DNA from: a virus
Lineage: Duplodnaviria > Caudoviricetes
Reading direction: 5' to 3' (one strand)
Length of the DNA: 64,000 nt
IMG/VR virus record: IMGVR_UViG_3300004241_000001
Location: 32,001-96,000 of that record
This document shows, one piece after another, positions 1,945 to 58,831 of this stretch (its first letter is position 1; the number at the start of each line of letters is the position of its first letter). A model generated the notes under the pieces. It was not told the origin of the DNA, made no database searches, and saw nothing but the letters and a program-made list of their open reading frames with translations. A program made the translations under genes and the position numbers.

Positions 1945-4900
1945 ATGGCAAACGTTAACCAGAGTATTTCAATTGATTTCTTAATGACCGCGAAATCAAA
2001 TCCTGCTGGATTTAATGATATTATAAGAAAAATAGAAAATATACGCGGAGAAATGGCAGATTTTAGTGGAAGTATAGGTTCTGGTATGTCAAAACTAATG
2101 TCTTCCTTTTCTATGTTCCAAAAGGGGCTTGAGCCGAGAGCCTTTTTATCTTCAACTGAAAAGATAAAGCAAGAAATAAGAAGTTTATCAGCAGAATTGT
2201 CAAACCTTTCAAAAAAAGCAAAAGGGATGGACATTGATTTATCTGCCATAAGCAAAATGCAGGGGATTTTACGTTCAGCAAGGGCTAAAGTCCAATATGA
2301 AGAGGCTCAATTTTATAAAGATTTAAGGTCTCCGTTTGACTTGTCTCAGGCAAAATTTTCTGCTATCCAAATTCCCCAATCGCCTCTATCATATAAGGCC
2401 CCTACCGGGCGACAAGTTGAGAGACTAAAAGAATCACTAACTCCGCAACCATCTGGTCTTGATAAATTTATGTCATCCCAGGTTTTGGCAGTCGGAAGAC
2501 TTGCTCGTTATTATGCTTCATTCGAATTAATTAATGGATCAATAAATGCTATAAATACTGCAATGCAAGAGACAATAATGCTTCAAGATAAAATGCTTGA
2601 AGTTAAAAAGTTCTTGCCAGTTAACTCTGCCACAAAAGAACTTGAAAATAATGTATATGCCCTCGCCAAAGCATATGGCGTATCAGCCGAGACGGTTTTA
2701 AATTCGTACTCAGAATTTGCTCAACAGGGCATGAAAGCGAATCAAATACTTGATGCTACTAAAGCCGCTTTACTCGGCGTTAATGTTGCATCAATAGATT
2801 TCGCTGAATCAACAAAATTCCTTACGACCGCAACAAATGTTTGGGGTTACAGCTTATCTCAATCAACGACATTGTTCGATAAATTATCTAAGGTTCAGGC
2901 TATGTCGGCTGTAACTGCACAGGCAATGATTTCAGCTATACAAAAAACTGGTTCAATTGCTCATGATGTTGGCGTTTCAATGGATGAACTTCTTGGATAT
3001 ATCGCCGCAATAACAGAGAAAACTCAACAATCTGGTGAAGTTACTGGTAACGCTTTAAAGACAATGTTCGAAAGATTATTACGTTCTGATAGTATAAGAA
3101 AATTAGAAGCAATGGATCCACTTAAAGGTATAACTTTTAGAAATATCCAAACTGGAGAACTTGAAAAAGCAGGAGTTATTTTATCGCAGATAGCTGGCAA
3201 ATGGAAAGATTTAACTGACATTGAAAGAAAGAATATTGGTGAAGTTATTGCTGGTGGTAGACAAATAAATACATTTACCGCTTTAATGTCAAACTTTGAC
3301 TCGGCTGTTAAATTAACTGGTGAATCTTTAAATTCTATGGGGTTTGCTCAACAACAGAATCAAACAGAGATGCAAAAATTCACTAAAAATGCACAAATAC
3401 TTAAAAATGTATTTTTAGAGTTGACAACTGATGCATTAACTCCTTTTATGGTAGCTACAAATCTATCTATAAATATTTTAGGCCAGTTTGGATCTAGTGT
3501 TATGCCTATAGCCAAAGCTGGTGTATCTGGATTTGGAGCGGCAGTTATGGTAGTTGCAACTATGGCTATACCAACTCTAATAAGAAGCATTATAGCGTCA
3601 GGTGGAGTTCTTGGAACATTTTTACAAACTATGGGTAATGCTGCTTTAGTTACCAAAGGTCTTGGAGCAGTTTTATCAGGCCCGGCAGGTATAGCATTTG
3701 CGATTGGAAGTGCAATATCTGGATTTTTACTATATAACAGTAGCGTTCAAGAATCTAAAGAAAAAACAGAAGATTTAAATAAAGAATTAGCCAAAACTGC
3801 CGATTCATTAAATAAATTATCAAAGGGGTTTTCTGCCAAAGAATTTACTGAAAGTATCCTTGGTGGAATGACATCAGAGCAATTAGCTAAAATAATAGAA
3901 CTGAATCCTGCCATAGAGTCTATAATAAGCTATGGAGAAAAAGGCCCATATATAAAATCTGGGAGACAAGACTTAGCCAGAAAAATGTTCGTTGAGGCTA
4001 CAAAGCAAACAATACAGCAAAAAGCTGAAGGTGGAGTTACTTTTGAAAGTTATGTGAAAGATGTTGGTTTAACTAAAGATCAATTAAGTGCAACGAGAGT
4101 GCAAGAAGAATTTAATAAACTTCTGAAAGAGTCTGGAGATTTACAGAAGGAAATTACAGGATATCTTTCTCGTTCAACGTTCCTTTCTGATTCCGAATTG
4201 AAAACTCTTGATTTAAAAAAGCAAAAACAAAAAGAAATAAACGGATTGCTTGCACAATTTGAATATTTGGCAAAAGCCTCGGCTGGGAGTTCCGAATTAT
4301 CATTACAAAATGCAATAGAAGCAGCCCAGCAAATTGCAAAATTATTTTTCCAAGATAAACCCACTCAAATTTCTCCTATTTCTGATTCTCAAGAAAAACT
4401 TGAGGCACAAAGGGCAGTAATAGAAGAAATTGGTATAGAAATGGAAAAAGGATTATTTACCGCCCAACAAAAAAATAAAGAATTTGATATTGAAAATGAA
4501 CTTTTAGAAAATCTAAAGTCTCAACAATTTGAACTTGGGGCAAAAGAAATTGAACTAAGAGAACAAGTAAATAAAGGTATAGATGGAGCAAAAGATAAAT
4601 ATGATGAAGTAATTAAGAAAAATGAAATTGTAAAATCATTAATTGGAGACCAAAAAGATATTTTACAAAGGCTTTTGGATTTACTTAATCAAGACTATTT
4701 TATTAATGTAAGATTTAATATGCCTCAAGGAATACCATTACCAGGTTTTATTCCGATCGGTGGAGAAGGGGCTGTTTCATCTGCTAATTTAAATAAAACA
4801 GCACAAGAAGCAAAAGCTAGAGAGACAATTGCAAACAAAGAAATATTAAAAACAACAAACGATATACTTTCAGCTCAAAACTCAATAAACGCATTAGAAA

Positions 4901-10700: not shown

Positions 10701-13093
10701 ATTTTTTAAACCAATGCTGCTTATCTTATGATGGAAATTATATTTATAGCCTTGGAGGCTCTTATAGAGATTATCAATTGCCCGGCCCCGATGAATACAC
10801 CTGGGATTGGCATAATAGGTTATATCTTTCTAGAAATCTCAATAGATACAATATATCATCAAATACGTGGGAATCTCTTACGGCTCCTTTAGTTGGTATT
10901 GCTGGAGGAACTTTACAAACAGATTCCACAGGTATATATGTATTTGGTGGGTATAGGGTTGATGGTTCAGGATTCTACTCCAGTAATTCAGCTCATAAAA
11001 TATATGATTATTCTACCGGATATGTTTTCGAGCCATATGGAGGAGTGCCTGAATCATTTGGAATATCTGGATGTATTTATGGTTCTAAATTTTTAATTGC
11101 CGGCGAAGGAGTTTATTCAATAGATTTAGTAAAAATGAAGGTAAGTCAGGCAATAGATATAAAACCAATAACTGACTACTGCTTATTTAGCTTCGCTACA
11201 ACAAAAAGAAGAAAGATATCTGTTTTAGTAAAACACCCATCAAAAAATGAAATTTATGCATGGCCTCTTGAAGAAACAATAATTGAGCCTGGAGTTTATA
11301 AAAGAGAAAATGGAATAAGATGGGATTTTGGTTTAGACTTTGAACAAAGATTTGGGGATTTTTGTGATAAAATATTTCTTTATCCAAATGACTCAGATGA
11401 TAATTATGTTTATTCGACAATCTATGAGGATTTGGAAATAACATCCGAATACGATCCTACGGTTACTCATAAAAGAACTCCTCCATTTTACATTGTTAGA
11501 CTTAATGTTAAACTGGATAAATATTTACTGAATACTCTTGGTTCGGCCACAATAAGTTCAGATATACAAATGGATGTTCCAATAATAACTCATTCTGATA
11601 TGTATAAAGATGGAGCGTTTAAACTTGCTATAGAAGATGTTTTCCCGTCTCAAGTGCAAGTTGGAGGCTCTGTCATAGCCCCATTATCAGTTAAAAAAAA
11701 TAATATAACATTAATTTTAAATGATATGGTTTATGTGGATGTTATTGTTCAAAGAAATGATGGCGCGAATGTCAATCAAATAACCCAATCTGTTGACGAG
11801 TATGGAAGATATCCTAACTCAGCCCAAAGAAATGTTATTACAGCAGCATTAATTGACGAAATAAAATGGGATTTGACGGATAGTAGCGGTATTTATGTAC
11901 CTATTAACTCTAAATATAAATTTAAAATCATAAATGCTTTTGGTGTTAATGGAGAGGCTGTTATTTTTACAACAGCCACAAGTGATAATATCCTTCCAAA
12001 TCCAATATTTAAACCAATATCTACAACAAATACTGTAACTACAACAAAACAATCATTAAATGGTTCTGTATCAAGTTCTACGTCAGTAGTGACTACAAAG
12101 ATAATGAAAGACTGGGTTTATAATGATTCTTTTGTTTCACTATTTGATATAACTCCTTCTAAATACTACTCATGGCAAGAATCTATTCAAGTTCCTAAAA
12201 CGTTACCGAATGGAACGGTAATTGGAAATACTACTACGATAATAACAAAAACATTAACAAATAAATCTTTTGGATATAACATAACAATGGATACAGACAA
12301 AGAAAGGGTTTCTACAACATTTGATCAGTTAGGAACTATTTCGTTTAAAAAAGAATTTAGTGGAAATACTTCAAATATCTTTGCCGGCGCTTTAATGGAT
12401 GTTGAGCTTGGAACAAATGATATTGAAAAAGTTACGTCGGAATATCTTAACGATTCTCCTCATGTAAAATCTACAAAGGCGTATATAGCCAATCCAGAAG
12501 TATCGCAAGATATCTATGTTAGTTTTGAATATTTGCTATATTCTCCTATAAGAACTGGATATCCAAGTGGAGAGTTAACTTTCGTAGATAAGAATGGCCA
12601 AACGGTAAGTTATGTTGATCTTTCGATTAGCGAAGCCATAAAAAAATACTGTTTGGCTCCAGTATTTTTTGTTGCTTATAAAACAGATAAATTATCCTAT
12701 AAAATAGTTAAATCAGATATGATAAAATTGACTCCAAGTAGTAATCCAGAAGGAACCATGTCTGTTGCAGGAACAAAATTTACAATACCAAAAGCTACAG
12801 ATTGTTCAGAAATAGATTTAATCGTAGGGGTTAAATTTGGAGATTCATTCAAATTGACAAGAACTTCAAACGACCCTCCTGGAAAACCATCGGGATATGT
12901 TGCAAATTTGTTTTCATCAGATCCAGAGCTATATTATTTTGTTGACTATGCTAAAACGCAATCATTTAATCCCGGGATAAATTTATATTTCGATAATTTT
13001 CAAACCATACTTGGAAGTGAATATCGAAAAATAACTTATTCTGAACAGCCAAAAGATAACGCAAAAACATCAGGAATATTCGAAGTAATATAA
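7787..13093 (+). CDS. Tail tip / baseplate hub protein with Kelch beta-propeller and FlgD-Ig-like domains
   Basis: Hub-like motifs (FTGVITDIQVSE, GFRMFFDKDGKLNI, GMPFLNIGDCIDI); about six Kelch repeats (IYALGG, LYVFGG, VYLISG, IYSLGG, IYVFGG with downstream W) at ~10240-11130. Confidence 0.75.
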   Translation: MDNFIYQTVNDNVSGKSGIASSCFYCEIFQGGLYDFHAKNKTTFSPNNGYDIITATKMRGETEVSYSVERSDVSLWTKFSPISFQKNFSVGQSKTINFTLPYNMFSYNMSTGIFTGNNDLTNFNFTLSKGYLVRLYSGFFSDDNTAAIYQDDNGQHTERQFTGVITDIQVSEDDGTLTIAASDYSVIFLNQLNYNYPDIVSYRDAAEDTEDVIVGGSTYKSPIRIQPDNLFADIANQQFIPAYDNWKVIDAIKDICIKSNFPVERIAFGFMNSDKIRLGKSKEYPFMKTQSKYIQTTATTIEEVVKISGIDAESLDDAKYKFDFGKNLWDCLSTICEDFGFRMFFDKDGKLNIKDVGVGTFYQDFTGTELQIIENNVYGWTAQDLTNYTNCTIKTSISGYKIEARFISKDAELPATTVRVYYNSNLLATVNVRALSKYDAETVTLFESDSPSGLFYFQCADTAYLNCLYYYTPEQQNNPIITLDTTKNVKITQSNLSNQEIRNQVISIGKPNASEPLISKSIDFTSIYGGENIISSLEFSNGIDAVSESKGDFLSNGKKDKYENVIFNPSSFTIKCDGSKPSPKILKIYFKQDSTYIGKTITINTTDSTFSQTISQYDLTNFGMFINIPTITTKVNGKYVIQLSCASAQSFYLSEVECFNNDISYNYAGFLKELMIVKDNVSDKSSNDWAAKTLIETHRGNSHQVEAEAIGMPFLNIGDCIDIYAPELGFAQDKNFYVTGISDSGTDISYTSKISLSAIPPVKSIQWMPDIDETKFTGDIYDFTIQIKEKDNVSGDAKGIIGGEFENISGLPGDMKNFKHGRMIAYDSVNGKIYALGGSSTWMTDTWITRMTPTKYFAIYDISTKTWTQGSMPVATCFGFACCYNGDLYVFGGTNNAANILKYTFSTSTWSNYGSLSFNFQYGGAAIKDNMVYLISGWSGSSSEYPVGGCYSYDILTKTITTLATLNSSNGYFLNQCCLSYDGNYIYSLGGSYRDYQLPGPDEYTWDWHNRLYLSRNLNRYNISSNTWESLTAPLVGIAGGTLQTDSTGIYVFGGYRVDGSGFYSSNSAHKIYDYSTGYVFEPYGGVPESFGISGCIYGSKFLIAGEGVYSIDLVKMKVSQAIDIKPITDYCLFSFATTKRRKISVLVKHPSKNEIYAWPLEETIIEPGVYKRENGIRWDFGLDFEQRFGDFCDKIFLYPNDSDDNYVYSTIYEDLEITSEYDPTVTHKRTPPFYIVRLNVKLDKYLLNTLGSATISSDIQMDVPIITHSDMYKDGAFKLAIEDVFPSQVQVGGSVIAPLSVKKNNITLILNDMVYVDVIVQRNDGANVNQITQSVDEYGRYPNSAQRNVITAALIDEIKWDLTDSSGIYVPINSKYKFKIINAFGVNGEAVIFTTATSDNILPNPIFKPISTTNTVTTTKQSLNGSVSSSTSVVTTKIMKDWVYNDSFVSLFDITPSKYYSWQESIQVPKTLPNGTVIGNTTTIITKTLTNKSFGYNITMDTDKERVSTTFDQLGTISFKKEFSGNTSNIFAGALMDVELGTNDIEKVTSEYLNDSPHVKSTKAYIANPEVSQDIYVSFEYLLYSPIRTGYPSGELTFVDKNGQTVSYVDLSISEAIKKYCLAPVFFVAYKTDKLSYKIVKSDMIKLTPSSNPEGTMSVAGTKFTIPKATDCSEIDLIVGVKFGDSFKLTRTSNDPPGKPSGYVANLFSSDPELYYFVDYAKTQSFNPGINLYFDNFQTILGSEYRKITYSEQPKDNAKTSGIFEVI

Positions 13094-23507: not shown

Positions 23508-24173
23508 TTGAAAATGAAACTAAGACTTAAAACAAAAGAAATTATCTTCGCTATTTTATTTGTAGTAATTTTAACAGGATGTATGTTCCTGTATAAAAAT
23601 TATGCAAAAGCATCAGAACTTGGTCATGTCGATTCAGTTGTAATTAAATCAAATGATGTGAAAGTTCCAAAAACTCTTATGTCAGAAATCAAACAAAAAC
23701 TTAAAAAACTTAATCGTATTGAAAAATCCGAACCAAATATCAAACTTGGTGAAATTAAAGTATTTACTGATAAAGATGGTAGAATATTTATTAATGATAC
23801 AACTTCTATATCTTTAAAACTTGCAGATATTGAATACGCCGGTGAACTTAAATTAAATGCAAAAACAGAAGTTTATCGCGTTCCAGAAAAAGAATTGCAA
23901 TGGTATAATAATTTTGGTTGGGAATATGGTATGATCCAAAAAGATAAAGATTCTTCAAAATTTGAAAAAGGCCAGTTTTATTTAACTTATGATACTCCTC
24001 TTGCATACAAAAGAGTTGGAACTTTACTTGAATTAAATAGATTTAATTATGGTGCTGGTATATTTTATAAAATTGGAAATACAAAATTAATTGGATCAGC
24101 TATTTTTAAATATGGCGATAGAATAAATAAAGAAAATGCAATGTATATGCTTGGCATTGGATATAATTTCTAA
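23508..24173 (+). CDS. Putative lipoprotein with a C-terminal outer-membrane beta-strand domain
   Basis: Signal peptide ending in lipobox LTG-C; amphipathic strands ending YMLGIGYNF. Confidence 0.5.
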   Translation: MKMKLRLKTKEIIFAILFVVILTGCMFLYKNYAKASELGHVDSVVIKSNDVKVPKTLMSEIKQKLKKLNRIEKSEPNIKLGEIKVFTDKDGRIFINDTTSISLKLADIEYAGELKLNAKTEVYRVPEKELQWYNNFGWEYGMIQKDKDSSKFEKGQFYLTYDTPLAYKRVGTLLELNRFNYGAGIFYKIGNTKLIGSAIFKYGDRINKENAMYMLGIGYNF

Positions 24174-24255
24174 AAGTATCTACTAAATGTAGATATAATC
24201 GAATCCCGGACTTACTTTATAGTTTGTTCGGGATTCGCCTTTGAAAGGCGGTTTT

Positions 24256-24375
24256 ATGTTGTTGACAGAATGGTTAATTTCTGATATTATTCTTTACGAA
24301 AACAATTCTATTCCTGACACATTAGAAATATTAGATAGAGAAATTCAATCCTTACTGAAGGAGGAAGCAAAATGA
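24256..24375 (+). CDS. Small acidic ORF (39 aa) coupled to the holin gene
   Basis: MLLTEWLISDIILYENNSIPDTLEILDREIQSLLKEEAK*; GAAAGGCGG SD; ATGA overlap with the holin start. Confidence 0.45.
   Translation: MLLTEWLISDIILYENNSIPDTLEILDREIQSLLKEEAK
24262..24290 (+). promoter_or_regulatory. Sigma70-type promoter (extended -10) upstream of holin and endolysin
   Basis: TTGACA, 17 bp spacer, TGaTATTAT. Confidence 0.5.
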
Positions 24376-25654: not shown

Positions 25655-25724
25655 ATGGAAAGTCTTTTCAAAATAATATATAATTTATTATTTGTAGATT
25701 ACAACAACTATTATAATCTCTAAT

Positions 25725-25795
25725 TGACTGGTAGTTCAACGGTAGAACATCGGACTTTGAATCCGGTAGTAATGGTTCGAGTCCATTCCGGTCAG
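25725..25795 (+). tRNA. tRNA-Gln (anticodon UUG), CCA not encoded
   Basis: Acceptor stem TGACTGG/CCGGTCA with G discriminator; D-arm GTTC/GAAC; anticodon arm TCGGA-CTTTGAA-TCCGG; T-arm AATGG-TTCGAGT-CCATT. Confidence 0.93.
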
Positions 25796-25822
25796 TAAAA
25801 TAAAAATAAGGATGGTTTAAAA

Positions 25823-37020: not shown

Positions 37021-37079
37021 TCACCTCGTATATTAATTTTATTCATTGATTGCGCCTCCGATTGCACAAAAGTTTATAT

Positions 37080-37108
37080 ATTATATCATAGTTTAGTCAT
37101 TATTTCAA
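37080..37108 (-). promoter_or_regulatory. Sigma70-type promoter
   Basis: TTGAAA, 17 bp spacer, TGaTATAAT. Confidence 0.55.
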
Positions 37109-37626: not shown

Positions 37627-38143
37627 TTATTTATCGCAAATAGCAGAAATTAAATCTTTTAAATCATTTTCTGCATATGAAAGCTCTTCATTAAGTTGGC
37701 AGATTTTTATTTCTAATACTTTTATATCTTTTTGTTTTTGGCTAAATAATTCATGCTGTTCATTACTAATTGTTTTTATAACTTTATAAGAGTTTGAGGT
37801 CGAGATCTCATAAAAAAATTTATCATAATACGAAGTTATATTTCCCGATTTAATTTCATATAGTTCTAAACAAATGTAGTCTCCACCATCATTTACAAGA
37901 TAATATTTAGAACCAAGTTTTAGAAATTCTTCTTTGATTAAAGTCTTATGAATTTTAAAATCAGGTGCTAGATTTAACCCCCTCTCTAATAGTTTTTTCG
38001 TCATACGAATTTACATTTATTTTAAGTAAGTTTTCTCCATTATCAGATATAGAATTTATTATTAATTTGTCTGTGTTTTTGTTATATATTGCTATACAGT
38101 TTATGTTATTTAATATCAATTCCTTGCATATAATATCTCCCAT
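37627..38143 (-). pseudogene. Paralog of 37105-37617 split by one extra G in a G5 run
   Basis: Removing one C from 37978-37982 fuses the two ORFs into IREGLNLAPD, co-linear with the paralog's IRQKLNLRPN. Confidence 0.75.
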
Positions 38144-38161
38144 ATTTTCTCCTTATCTGTT

Positions 38162-38247
38162 AAAGCCGGCTGACGAATCAACGTCTGACACCGATCTCTT
38201 CCAGTTCAAAACCAGTTTGAACCTTTGATTAAAGTATCACCGGCCTT
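38162..38247 (-). ncRNA. Candidate structured RNA with a multi-stem junction and pseudoknot; family not recognised
   Basis: Stems AAGGCCGG/CCGGCUUU, UGAUAC/GUGUCA, GUUCAAA/UUUGAAC, GACG/CGUC; loop UUGAUU is complementary to AAUCAA. Confidence 0.5.
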
Positions 38248-38252
38248 ATATT

Positions 38253-38842: not shown

Positions 38843-39364
38843 TTACCTCATTTTATATAATTGAAGCCTTGTTATAACAAAATCAACGGTATTTACCAAT
38901 ATTTGAGTCAGTAAAATATCTATCTTGAATTTTTCGCAAAGCTTTATTATATGCTCAACCATTTCATCTCTCTTTGAGCAATTACTTCTTTTTATAGACG
39001 ATGAAATCCAATCAGCAAACATTTCGATTATGTTTATAAGATTCATGTCATGAATTCCATTTTTAAAATGCTCTGGATGATGATTATTATTAAAAAAATG
39101 ATGTTTACAATATTCGTTTGATGCTACAAAATCGTTATATTCTTTAGTTCCGTATTTATATTTTTGTATTTGCGATAAAAACTCAATGAACATTGATAGT
39201 TCTGGTTCTTCCATTTTGGAATTATCATGAGTATCGACTCGATTATTTAATTCATCGATTATTATGGTCATAACTTCTTTAACATTATTTTTGTGGTTTT
39301 TCGTTATTTGTATCGCAAATTCTTTATCAGCTGTTTTCATTATGTGCGTATTTTCTATTTTCAT
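38843..39364 (-). CDS. DUF5662-like HD-type protein
   Basis: HDNSKMEEPE, HHFFNNNHHPEHF, MNLINIIEMFADW. Confidence 0.7.
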   Translation of the reverse strand: MKIENTHIMKTADKEFAIQITKNHKNNVKEVMTIIIDELNNRVDTHDNSKMEEPELSMFIEFLSQIQKYKYGTKEYNDFVASNEYCKHHFFNNNHHPEHFKNGIHDMNLINIIEMFADWISSSIKRSNCSKRDEMVEHIIKLCEKFKIDILLTQILVNTVDFVITRLQLYKMR

Positions 39365-43527: not shown

Positions 43528-43692
43528 TCATTTGCTCTCTTTTATTCCGTTCCAATATGTTATTAGAGGGCTTGTTTCATCATCATAATAAGCGGTACAG
43601 CCAAATTGCCAAATCTCAATAGGTTTGAAAAATAAGCCGCACCACAAATTATGACAATGACCGCAATCCACGCATCTTTTAATTAAGAACAT
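43528..43692 (-). CDS. Small Cys-rich protein, 54 aa (not in the ORF track)
   Basis: MFLIKRCVDCGHCHNLWCGLFFKPIEIWQFGCTAYYDD...ESK*; overlaps both neighbours. Confidence 0.5.
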   Translation of the reverse strand: MFLIKRCVDCGHCHNLWCGLFFKPIEIWQFGCTAYYDDETSPLITYWNGIKESK

Positions 43693-57813: not shown

Positions 57814-57840
57814 AAAGACCGGCTTTCGCCGGCCTTAATT
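57814..57840. repeat. 27-bp direct repeat copy 1 (GAAA-loop hairpin / terminator)
   Basis: AAAGACCGGCTTTCGCCGGCCTTAATT, identical to 58805-58831. Confidence 0.9.
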
Positions 57841-58790
57841 TATAACTTTTTAGCTATTTCATATATCACATTTACTGTTACGCCATTTCCTGCTTGTTTA
57901 TAAAGCTGACTATCAGAATTGACCATTCTTGCTCTCTCAAAATATTCATCTGGAAATCCTTGAAGTCTAAAGCATTCTTTAGGAGTTAATCTGCGAATGC
58001 GTTTATTTTCTAAAATCCCAGTTCTTGCAGAATGATTGTCAAGTCCTTTATAGTATGTTGCATTAAGACAAGTAAAATTATTTCTTTTTATTATATTTCC
58101 ACGATTTATTGTGACTAAATAAAGTCCAGTTTTAGCTCCAAGACCTCCACCTAGCCCAATTAAGTTTTTAGAAATTCCATCTTCATCATAGACTCTTTCT
58201 GCCATTGTTCCTGGAATTAATTCTTTAAGTTTTCCATTAGTTTTTCCATCATTTCTTTCGAGAGGAAATATTTTTCGTCTACGCTCTCCTCTAAGATATG
58301 CGATAATAAACACTCTTTCTCTGTTTTGTGGCACTCCATAATTTTTTGAGTTGATAACACACCATTCGATCTGGTCATACCCTGCATCCCGAATTGCAAG
58401 CAAGATTGATCCGAATGTTCTTCCTTTGTCGTGGTTAAGAAGTCCTCTAACATTTTCCAAGAATAAAATTTTCGGTCGTTTTTCTTTTGCGAGTCGAAGT
58501 ACGTCAAAAATAACTGTTCCCCTTGTATCCTCAAAGCCTTGTCTTTTTCCGGCAATGGAGAAACTTTGGCAGCAAAATCCTCCGCACCAGATGTCGGCGT
58601 TTGGCAGATCCCTTGATTCAATTTTTGTAATGTCTTCTCCAAAATATTCATCCTCCTTTGGATTATGCATTGCTGTATAACTTTTATTAGCATACTTATC
58701 TATTTCTATATGTCCAACACATTCATGCCCTGCCATTTCTAGTCCTAAACGAAAACCTCCGATTCCAGAAAATATATCTAAAAATTTCAT
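57840..58790 (-). CDS. C5 cytosine DNA methyltransferase
   Basis: FSGIGG, GGFCCQSFS (PC motif variant), ENVRGL, PQNRERVF, RRLTPKECFRLQGFPD, QAGNGV. Confidence 0.95.
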   Translation of the reverse strand: MKFLDIFSGIGGFRLGLEMAGHECVGHIEIDKYANKSYTAMHNPKEDEYFGEDITKIESRDLPNADIWCGGFCCQSFSIAGKRQGFEDTRGTVIFDVLRLAKEKRPKILFLENVRGLLNHDKGRTFGSILLAIRDAGYDQIEWCVINSKNYGVPQNRERVFIIAYLRGERRRKIFPLERNDGKTNGKLKELIPGTMAERVYDEDGISKNLIGLGGGLGAKTGLYLVTINRGNIIKRNNFTCLNATYYKGLDNHSARTGILENKRIRRLTPKECFRLQGFPDEYFERARMVNSDSQLYKQAGNGVTVNVIYEIAKKL

Positions 58791-58804: not shown

Positions 58805-58831
58805 AAAGACCGGCTTTCGCCGGCCTTAATT
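58805..58831. repeat. 27-bp direct repeat copy 2
   Basis: Identical to 57814-57840. Confidence 0.9.

Follow-up and report, generated by a model that had tools for sequence, protein, structure and literature searches.

The minus strand of the 115-kb genome of an uncultivated phage carries, in a gap between two genes, a branched RNA element whose structure is real because related phages keep it via compensating mutations, and comparison of these sequences indicates that it is selected at the RNA level. The element is a new RNA motif that belongs to no described family, and its function can be given as a candidate only: we tentatively favour, as a quite possible role, a cis-acting operon-boundary element that borders a variable gene region and would protect or process the transcript there.

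Fold and setting of the element

The window, meaning the whole 64,000-nt stretch of DNA analysed, corresponds to bases 32001-96000 of an IMG/VR phage record that is complete at 115,414 bp, has direct terminal repeats and contains approximately 30% G+C. The preliminary description had quoted an RNA on the minus (gene-sense) strand at 38162-38247, a position that was verified, and had described it as a GC-richer island in an intergenic gap ending shortly before a ribosome-binding site. The element indeed has 44% G+C compared to 27-29% in its surroundings and fills a 109-nt gap between ORFs of 195 and 60 aa, the AAGGAG of the latter beginning 7 nt past the element end. The element is located where a conserved nucleotide-metabolism block (ThyX, dNMP kinase, DUF5662) ends. 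The features of the locus are as follows, with helices named P1 to P3:
38161..38248, minus strand: whole structured element, 88 nt as modelled (minimum-free-energy (MFE) fold, covariance models and homologs), enclosing 38162-38247
38239..38248, minus strand: 5' strand of P1, core GGCCGG; pairs with 38161-38170; the 7-bp core is invariant or changed only from G-C to G-U (n = 5)
38161..38170, minus strand: 3' strand of P1, core CCGGC (MFE fold, alignment)
38233..38238, minus strand: 5' strand of P2; pairs with 38187-38192; changed once on both sides (A-U to G-C) and twice on one side; paired in 5/5 sequences
38187..38192, minus strand: 3' strand of P2, a 6-bp helix (alignment)
38224..38232, minus strand: 5' strand of the internal loop, containing AAUCAA (38225-38230); helix P2a is its pairing with the 3' strand in relatives
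38193..38202, minus strand: 3' strand of the internal loop, beginning with an invariant GGAA (alignment A5)
38203..38223, minus strand: P2b, apical hairpin of 8 bp with the invariant loop CUGGU (38211-38215); 100% of cells paired; one both-sided change, in the loop-closing pair
38172..38185, minus strand: P3, side hairpin of 4 bp with loop UUGAUU (38176-38181); two both-sided changes in L033
38253..38840, minus strand: upstream ORF P0001, 195 aa, an orphan gene; relatives have an unrelated 75-aa or 51-aa ORF instead
37961..38143, minus strand: downstream ORF P0002, 60 aa, with Shine-Dalgarno sequence AAGGAG at 38149-38154
37080..37108, minus strand: promoter-like site (TTGAAA, 17 nt, TG-TATAAT) ahead of a 3D-domain gene

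Some further observations were made on the surrounding genes. The 60-aa ORF and the following 125-aa ORF overlap by 44 nt (37961-38004, minus strand) in different frames, and no ribosome-binding site lies ahead of the start of the latter. The Atlas model of the DUF5662 protein (38843-39364, minus strand) aligns with HD-domain proteins at a TM score of around 0.5, a predicted likeness that would suit a phosphohydrolase in a block with ThyX, dNMP kinase and dUTPase. Most relatives examined share a conserved promoter (TTGAAA or TTGTAA, 17 nt, TG-TATAAT) followed by a small leader hairpin (UUGUGC...GCGCAA) before the 3D-domain gene (window 37021-37104 on the minus strand, L015:3800-3900, L033:1118-1200 and L036:840-925).

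The four helices that had been proposed are those given by the MFE fold of the minus strand (RNAfold), which has an energy of -32.1 kcal/mol (z = -4.03) and was matched in stability by 0/200 shuffles. They meet in a three-way junction with 0-1 unpaired bases. The G-U pairs, of which the window copy has five, had been said to work on this strand only, and they do: substitutions in the relatives are C-G to U-G, and the plus strand folds poorly (z = -1.64 only). Stability by itself is not decisive, as the element ranks only approximately 15th among loci by fold energy alone in a genome-wide scan of 100-nt windows. Elsewhere in the genome, intergenic structures are simple U-tailed terminator hairpins; the element is the sole branched one, found as a single copy in the 115-kb genome with covariance models R1 and R2. 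After G+C correction, the most stable 100-nt folds in the genome lie at 24141-24300 (plus strand) and 43575-43674 (minus strand), with z around -5.5; the former is situated past the lysis genes and ahead of the tRNA-Gln region, in a non-coding gap of 469 nt. Beyond the window, genome positions 11359-12430 comprise 1,072 nt with no ORF of at least 50 aa, and hold promoter-like and hairpin features including a strong stem (AUCGGCGGU...ACCGCCGAU).

The ends of the element had been likened to a 27-nt hairpin repeat found at two sites in the window:
57814..57840, minus strand: 27-nt hairpin repeat just downstream of a C5-methyltransferase gene, with a U tail, terminator-like
58805..58831, minus strand: the other copy of this 27-nt repeat, immediately upstream of the methyltransferase gene
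Each repeat is a GGCCGGC-GAAA-GCCGG hairpin with a GNRA loop, and one of them scores as a terminator. The likeness holds in that AAGGCCGG and CCGG.YUUU are common to both, but viral contigs that are high in GC and unrelated to the phage have the same terminator hairpin, and the likeness may thus be generic. The position of the C5-methyltransferase gene (approximately 57840-58790) between identical repeats suggests a cassette with flanking terminator-like stem-loops. The palindrome GCCGGC is itself by far the commonest G/C-only hexamer of the phage, which encodes this C5 cytosine methyltransferase: 36 occurrences were counted in the 115-kb, 30% G+C genome (next hexamer 14, median 2) compared to approximately 1.7 expected from base composition, mostly inside genes (e.g. 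window 1760, 9788, 38165, 57828 and 58819).

Conservation and variation in related phages

Relatives were reached via homologs of the neighbouring dNMP kinase and DUF5662 proteins, which led to contigs of uncultivated phages in which the element was then located by R1, a single-sequence covariance model. Four further distinct versions were found, giving five distinct sequences with the window: L017 (same sequence in L031), L015 (L016), L030 and L033 (L034), the last of which was reached via a remote relative of the 75-aa upstream ORF. BLAST searches of the phage collection with this region, both near and distant, had no relevant hits, P0001 had no homolog in IMG/VR or in a set of 5.8 billion proteins, and a 616-aa protein gave no viral relatives. 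Other contigs with P0001 are copies of the same phage with a 100% identical element and are uninformative, the IMG/VR relative L002/G001 had no R1 match, and the P0018 and P0021 contigs end short of the element. Exact and gapped DNA patterns matched viral contigs only by chance in coding regions; the same type of pattern recovered only an L013-type phage (L023) from metagenome contigs and nothing real from genome contigs.

The comparison upheld the helices. P1, P2, P2b and P3 are kept in 5/5 sequences with compensatory changes, and RNAalifold, run on the alignment of the five (A5), independently predicted the same four, with four both-sided pair changes and none broken; in this sample of five, the diverged sequence L033 accounts for most of the both-sided changes. 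When P2a and a fifth P3 pair are added the number of both-sided changes rises to six, which was reached by 0/500 shuffles, and 91% of all cells are paired compared to 22-50% with the partners slid. The one-sided changes are all G-C to G-U and thus compatible only with an RNA of the minus strand. The nucleotide identity of the element (86-95%) is no higher than that of the neighbouring genes. The unpaired letters that never vary make up the CUGGU loop, the GGAA on the 3' side of P2b and a single A facing GGAA; across the five sequences this loop, the GGAA bulge and most of P2b stay constant while P2, P2a and P3 change, which points to a specific partner.

The preliminary description had also proposed a pseudoknot or kissing loop, and the observation behind it is correct, the P3 loop UUGAUU being the exact complement of AAUCAA in the internal loop. 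Such a 6-nt complement arises by chance in approximately 0.3% of shuffles of the unpaired letters (p ~0.003), and the isolated duplex would be weak (-2.4 kcal/mol). Conservation speaks against the pairing. The complement is present in 3/5 sequences, of which L017 and L030 are unchanged and hence uninformative; no both-sided change was found, and the pairing is broken in both diverged homologs, so that pseudoknot cells are paired at 79% compared to 100% for P2, P2b and P3. In L015, AAUCAA has become AAGUUACA and a substitution in the loop adds a fifth base pair to P3, leaving 4 nt unpaired in the loop, and in L033 the loop reads UAAAC and the partner AAUCGC; the P3 loop is thus variable in both sequence and length (6, 4 or 5 nt). 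In these two phages, the strands of the internal loop instead pair with each other over 7 and 6 bp, respectively. Of the six P2a pairs, L015 and L033 have all, L030 has four and the window and L017 have three each; two pairs changed on both sides. Since P2a replaces the pseudoknot in L015 and L033, the conserved shape is a GC clamp bearing a rod-like long arm and a short side hairpin rather than a pseudoknotted pocket.

The long arm (P2-P2a-P2b) is an irregular helix of about 17-22 bp, which is a near-continuous duplex in L015, in L033 and in L013, a possible distant homolog. L036 retains only P1 and P3, the long arm being wholly deleted and P1 held by two C-G to U-G changes. The L013 slot after DUF5662 is occupied by a 27-bp hairpin resembling the long arm, with the motif UUGAACU in common and without P1 and P3; its homology to the element is possible but not established (approximately 12 bits, E 0.2-0.8). 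As one relative has P1 and P3 only and the other the long arm only, the element behaves as separable hairpins rather than one pocket. The L013 gap after DUF5662 measures 161 nt; next to each other in it lie two long hairpins (L013:7222-7360, identical in L023 and L035), which together comprise 156 nt (-47.2 kcal/mol, z = -6.2) and both contain the motif AUUGAACUUG.

The element always lies 5-20 nt past the last ORF after DUF5662, and in every relative compared the gene content switches within about 10-20 nt of both of its ends:
Window: upstream, the 195-aa orphan P0001; downstream, the 60-aa P0002
L017: upstream, the 75-aa ORF; downstream, a second, different gene
L030: upstream, the 75-aa ORF; downstream, a third, different gene
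L015: upstream, the 75-aa ORF; downstream, a deletion remnant of the L030-type gene and a promoter 65 nt after the element
L033: upstream, the 51-aa ORF; downstream, no gene, and the promoter (TTGTAA, 17 nt, TG-TATAAT) of the conserved 3D-domain gene 2 nt after the element
No promoter upstream of the element is conserved across the versions, and no canonical terminator was found nearby. In L015, a promoter-like site (TTAACA, 18 nt, TATAAT; 11/12 matches) is located at 3614-3643 on the plus strand and ends 12 nt before the element; it is absent from L017, L030, L033 and the window.

Candidate functions

Transcript punctuation in cis is the function we favour, tentatively, because RNA-level selection and separable hairpins coincide at an operon boundary beside recombination-prone cassettes; in addition, the P1 clamp and the terminator-like GNRA hairpins of the phage itself match. 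Of the roles named in the preliminary description, a processing element is accordingly the most plausible candidate. A long leftward phage transcript would be punctuated after the conserved nucleotide-metabolism block and before the variable small genes and the next promoter. Within the operon mRNA, the element is predicted to fold into a GC-clamped Y in which P1 bears the long arm and the short side hairpin P3, and this stable fold may block 3' exonucleases and/or act as an entry site for an endonuclease. The cut might be of the RNase III type, in the long double-stranded arm, or might fall at the P1-P3 stack, which has the dimensions of a tRNA minihelix. The upstream message would thereby have its 3' end fixed and be separated from the downstream cassette. 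The structure, its conservation and its position are established, whereas the scheme presumes that the element is transcribed, and any partner protein of the CUGGU loop and the GGAA bulge is putative. An RNase III site would be expected to offer roughly 20 bp or more of mostly continuous double-stranded RNA; the arm of the window copy has 17 bp, those of L015 and L033 have 19-21 bp, and stacking on P1 would lengthen them. The branch is atypical, as known RNase III sites are not typically three-way junctions. The element is not a canonical intrinsic terminator, since the GC stem is present but no U-tract follows P1 in any homolog: the tails after P1 are A-rich (UAAAAAAU, UAAACAAA, UAAAUAAA) and that of the window has 3 U only.

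The same features could belong to an RNA acting in trans, which we regard as doubtful. In that case a stable small RNA would be cut from the operon transcript with its ends protected by P1, and the apical hairpin (CUGGU and the adjacent GGAA) would bind a phage or host protein or RNA. A closed P1 around a branched domain is the usual architecture of stable small RNAs, and the element shares this build. The invariance of the loop, the GGAA bulge and most of P2b (n = 5) against changing P2, P2a and P3 would also be expected of a binding site, and the element is retained while the genes on both sides are swapped. It has, however, neither a conserved promoter nor a terminator of its own, a search of the phage genome for complements of the apical loop found no target, and L036 lacks the very arm that bears the invariant loop. 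More speculatively, and in our estimate rather improbably, the element might be the founding member of a new class of stable phage RNAs, a GC-clamped Y freed from an early or middle transcript with an invariant apical hairpin (CUGGU and GGAA) that recruits a specific host or phage protein; in the lineage of the window, such an RNA could switch between the P2a helix and the loop-to-internal-loop pseudoknot.

An explanation at the DNA level carries only a small probability. The element would then mark the border of a hyperplastic region, either as a conserved boundary or recombination sequence or as a DNA hairpin of the protein-binding or single-strand type, in a role comparable to that of the PeSL stem-loops, which together with promoter motifs mediate gene shuffling in T4-like phages (PMC4122927, PMC2839356). 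Consistent with this, gene content changes some 10-20 nt from both ends in every relative compared, and P1 is made of GCCGGC, the hexamer with 36 occurrences against 1.7 expected. A PeSL is a stem-loop bordering insertions, deletions or replacements, as the element does, gene content differing on both sides in every relative compared; PeSLs also occur in many copies, each with an early promoter, and here a single copy was found, with an adjacent promoter in L033 only. The compensatory changes moreover preserve pairing rather than sequence, and the G-U pairs and C-to-U changes fit one strand only, which argues against selection on the DNA.

It is very improbable that the downstream gene is controlled by a pseudoknotted riboswitch or by a self-cleaving ribozyme, a riboswitch and a ribozyme being among the roles that the preliminary description had suggested. 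The three-way junction fold is stable, the P3 loop is exactly complementary to 6 nt of the internal loop (p ~0.003) in three of the five sequences, and a ribosome-binding site follows the element at 7-10 nt in the window and in L017. The pseudoknot is nevertheless lost uncompensated in L015 and L033, where P2a takes its place, its duplex amounts to only -2.4 kcal/mol, and neither the junction nor the loops show a conserved core. The scan against Rfam 15 gave no match at gathering thresholds or at E <= 10, in agreement with the earlier statement that the conserved cores of hammerhead, HDV, twister, pistol and SAM-I RNAs are lacking, and the five homolog loci had no Rfam match at E <= 5. Self-cleaving ribozymes (hammerhead, twister, twister-sister, pistol, hatchet and HDV) were rejected on the same grounds, as neither an Rfam match nor a conserved core was seen in any homolog, and a ribozyme is thus unlikely. 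For a riboswitch, the strands of the internal loop that might form a ligand pocket vary and are mutually paired in L015 and L033, the loop closing into a helix in these members, and the junction leaves 0-1 bases unpaired. The target would also be inconsistent, with four different downstream genes, none in L033, and no conserved terminator or anti-Shine-Dalgarno alternative.

A decayed tRNA gene or tRNA-like structure (P1 as acceptor stem, P3 as T arm, P2b as anticodon arm) is equally hard to credit: ARAGORN at a 50% threshold gives a poor tRNA-Pro(UGG)-like cloverleaf, and in L030 and L033 the 7-bp P1 stacks directly on a 5-bp P3 to the 12 bp of a tRNA minihelix, but ARAGORN with defaults called only a tRNA-Gln at 25724-25796 in the window, the Rfam tRNA model (RF00005) had no match at E <= 10, the anticodon loop would read A-C-UGG-U-U without U33 or a purine at 37, the P3 loop of 4-6 nt has no T-loop motif, D-arm-like pairing is absent in L015, and the conserved P2 helix is incompatible with a cloverleaf.

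Likeness to known systems and significance

Among known systems, we consider the element closest in kind to the intercistronic processing or stabiliser hairpins of phages and, in its genomic behaviour, to PeSL cassettes (PMC4122927). It shares with the phage and bacterial hairpins a GC clamp in an AT-rich genome, an irregular duplex arm of approximately two helical turns and the lack of a coding role, and it is placed as T7 RNase III sites and REP-type GC-rich palindromes are, between co-oriented genes or at an operon end. It differs from them in being a branched three-way junction, present in a single copy and with an invariant apical loop, and in that cleavage or protection is presumed for it. 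As in PeSLs (PMC2839356, PMC4122927), a conserved stem-loop is found exactly where unrelated small genes are gained, lost and swapped, and in L033 the element directly abuts a promoter. PeSLs are in contrast short, present in many copies per genome and composed of an early promoter and a simple stem-loop, whereas the element is single-copy, 85-88 nt long and branched, and its promoter adjacency is seen in one relative only. Intrinsic terminators, including the GGCCGGC-GAAA-GCCGG hairpins of this phage, have the same GC-rich basal stem of 7-9 bp at the end of a gene block, but in the element the tetraloop is replaced by approximately 70 nt of structured RNA and the U-tract is missing in all homologs. 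Three-way-junction riboswitches of the THF-I type are of similar size, and the complement between a hairpin loop and the internal loop of the neighbouring arm in the window is reminiscent of them; here, no Rfam match was obtained, the pseudoknot and the internal loop are unconserved, and neither a downstream gene nor an expression platform recurs consistently.

The element is an RNA motif supported by covariation and new to the known families; it comes from phages of approximately 115 kb with direct terminal repeats, a clade that has been poorly sampled and originates from anaerobic or sediment-type metagenomes. It also carries a caution, as a pseudoknot that was statistically striking in one genome vanished upon comparison with homologs. 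Situated at the seam between a conserved metabolic operon and fast-changing cassettes, the element could show how large lytic phages insulate their transcripts at recombination hot spots, and it could also uncover a new protein-RNA partnership.
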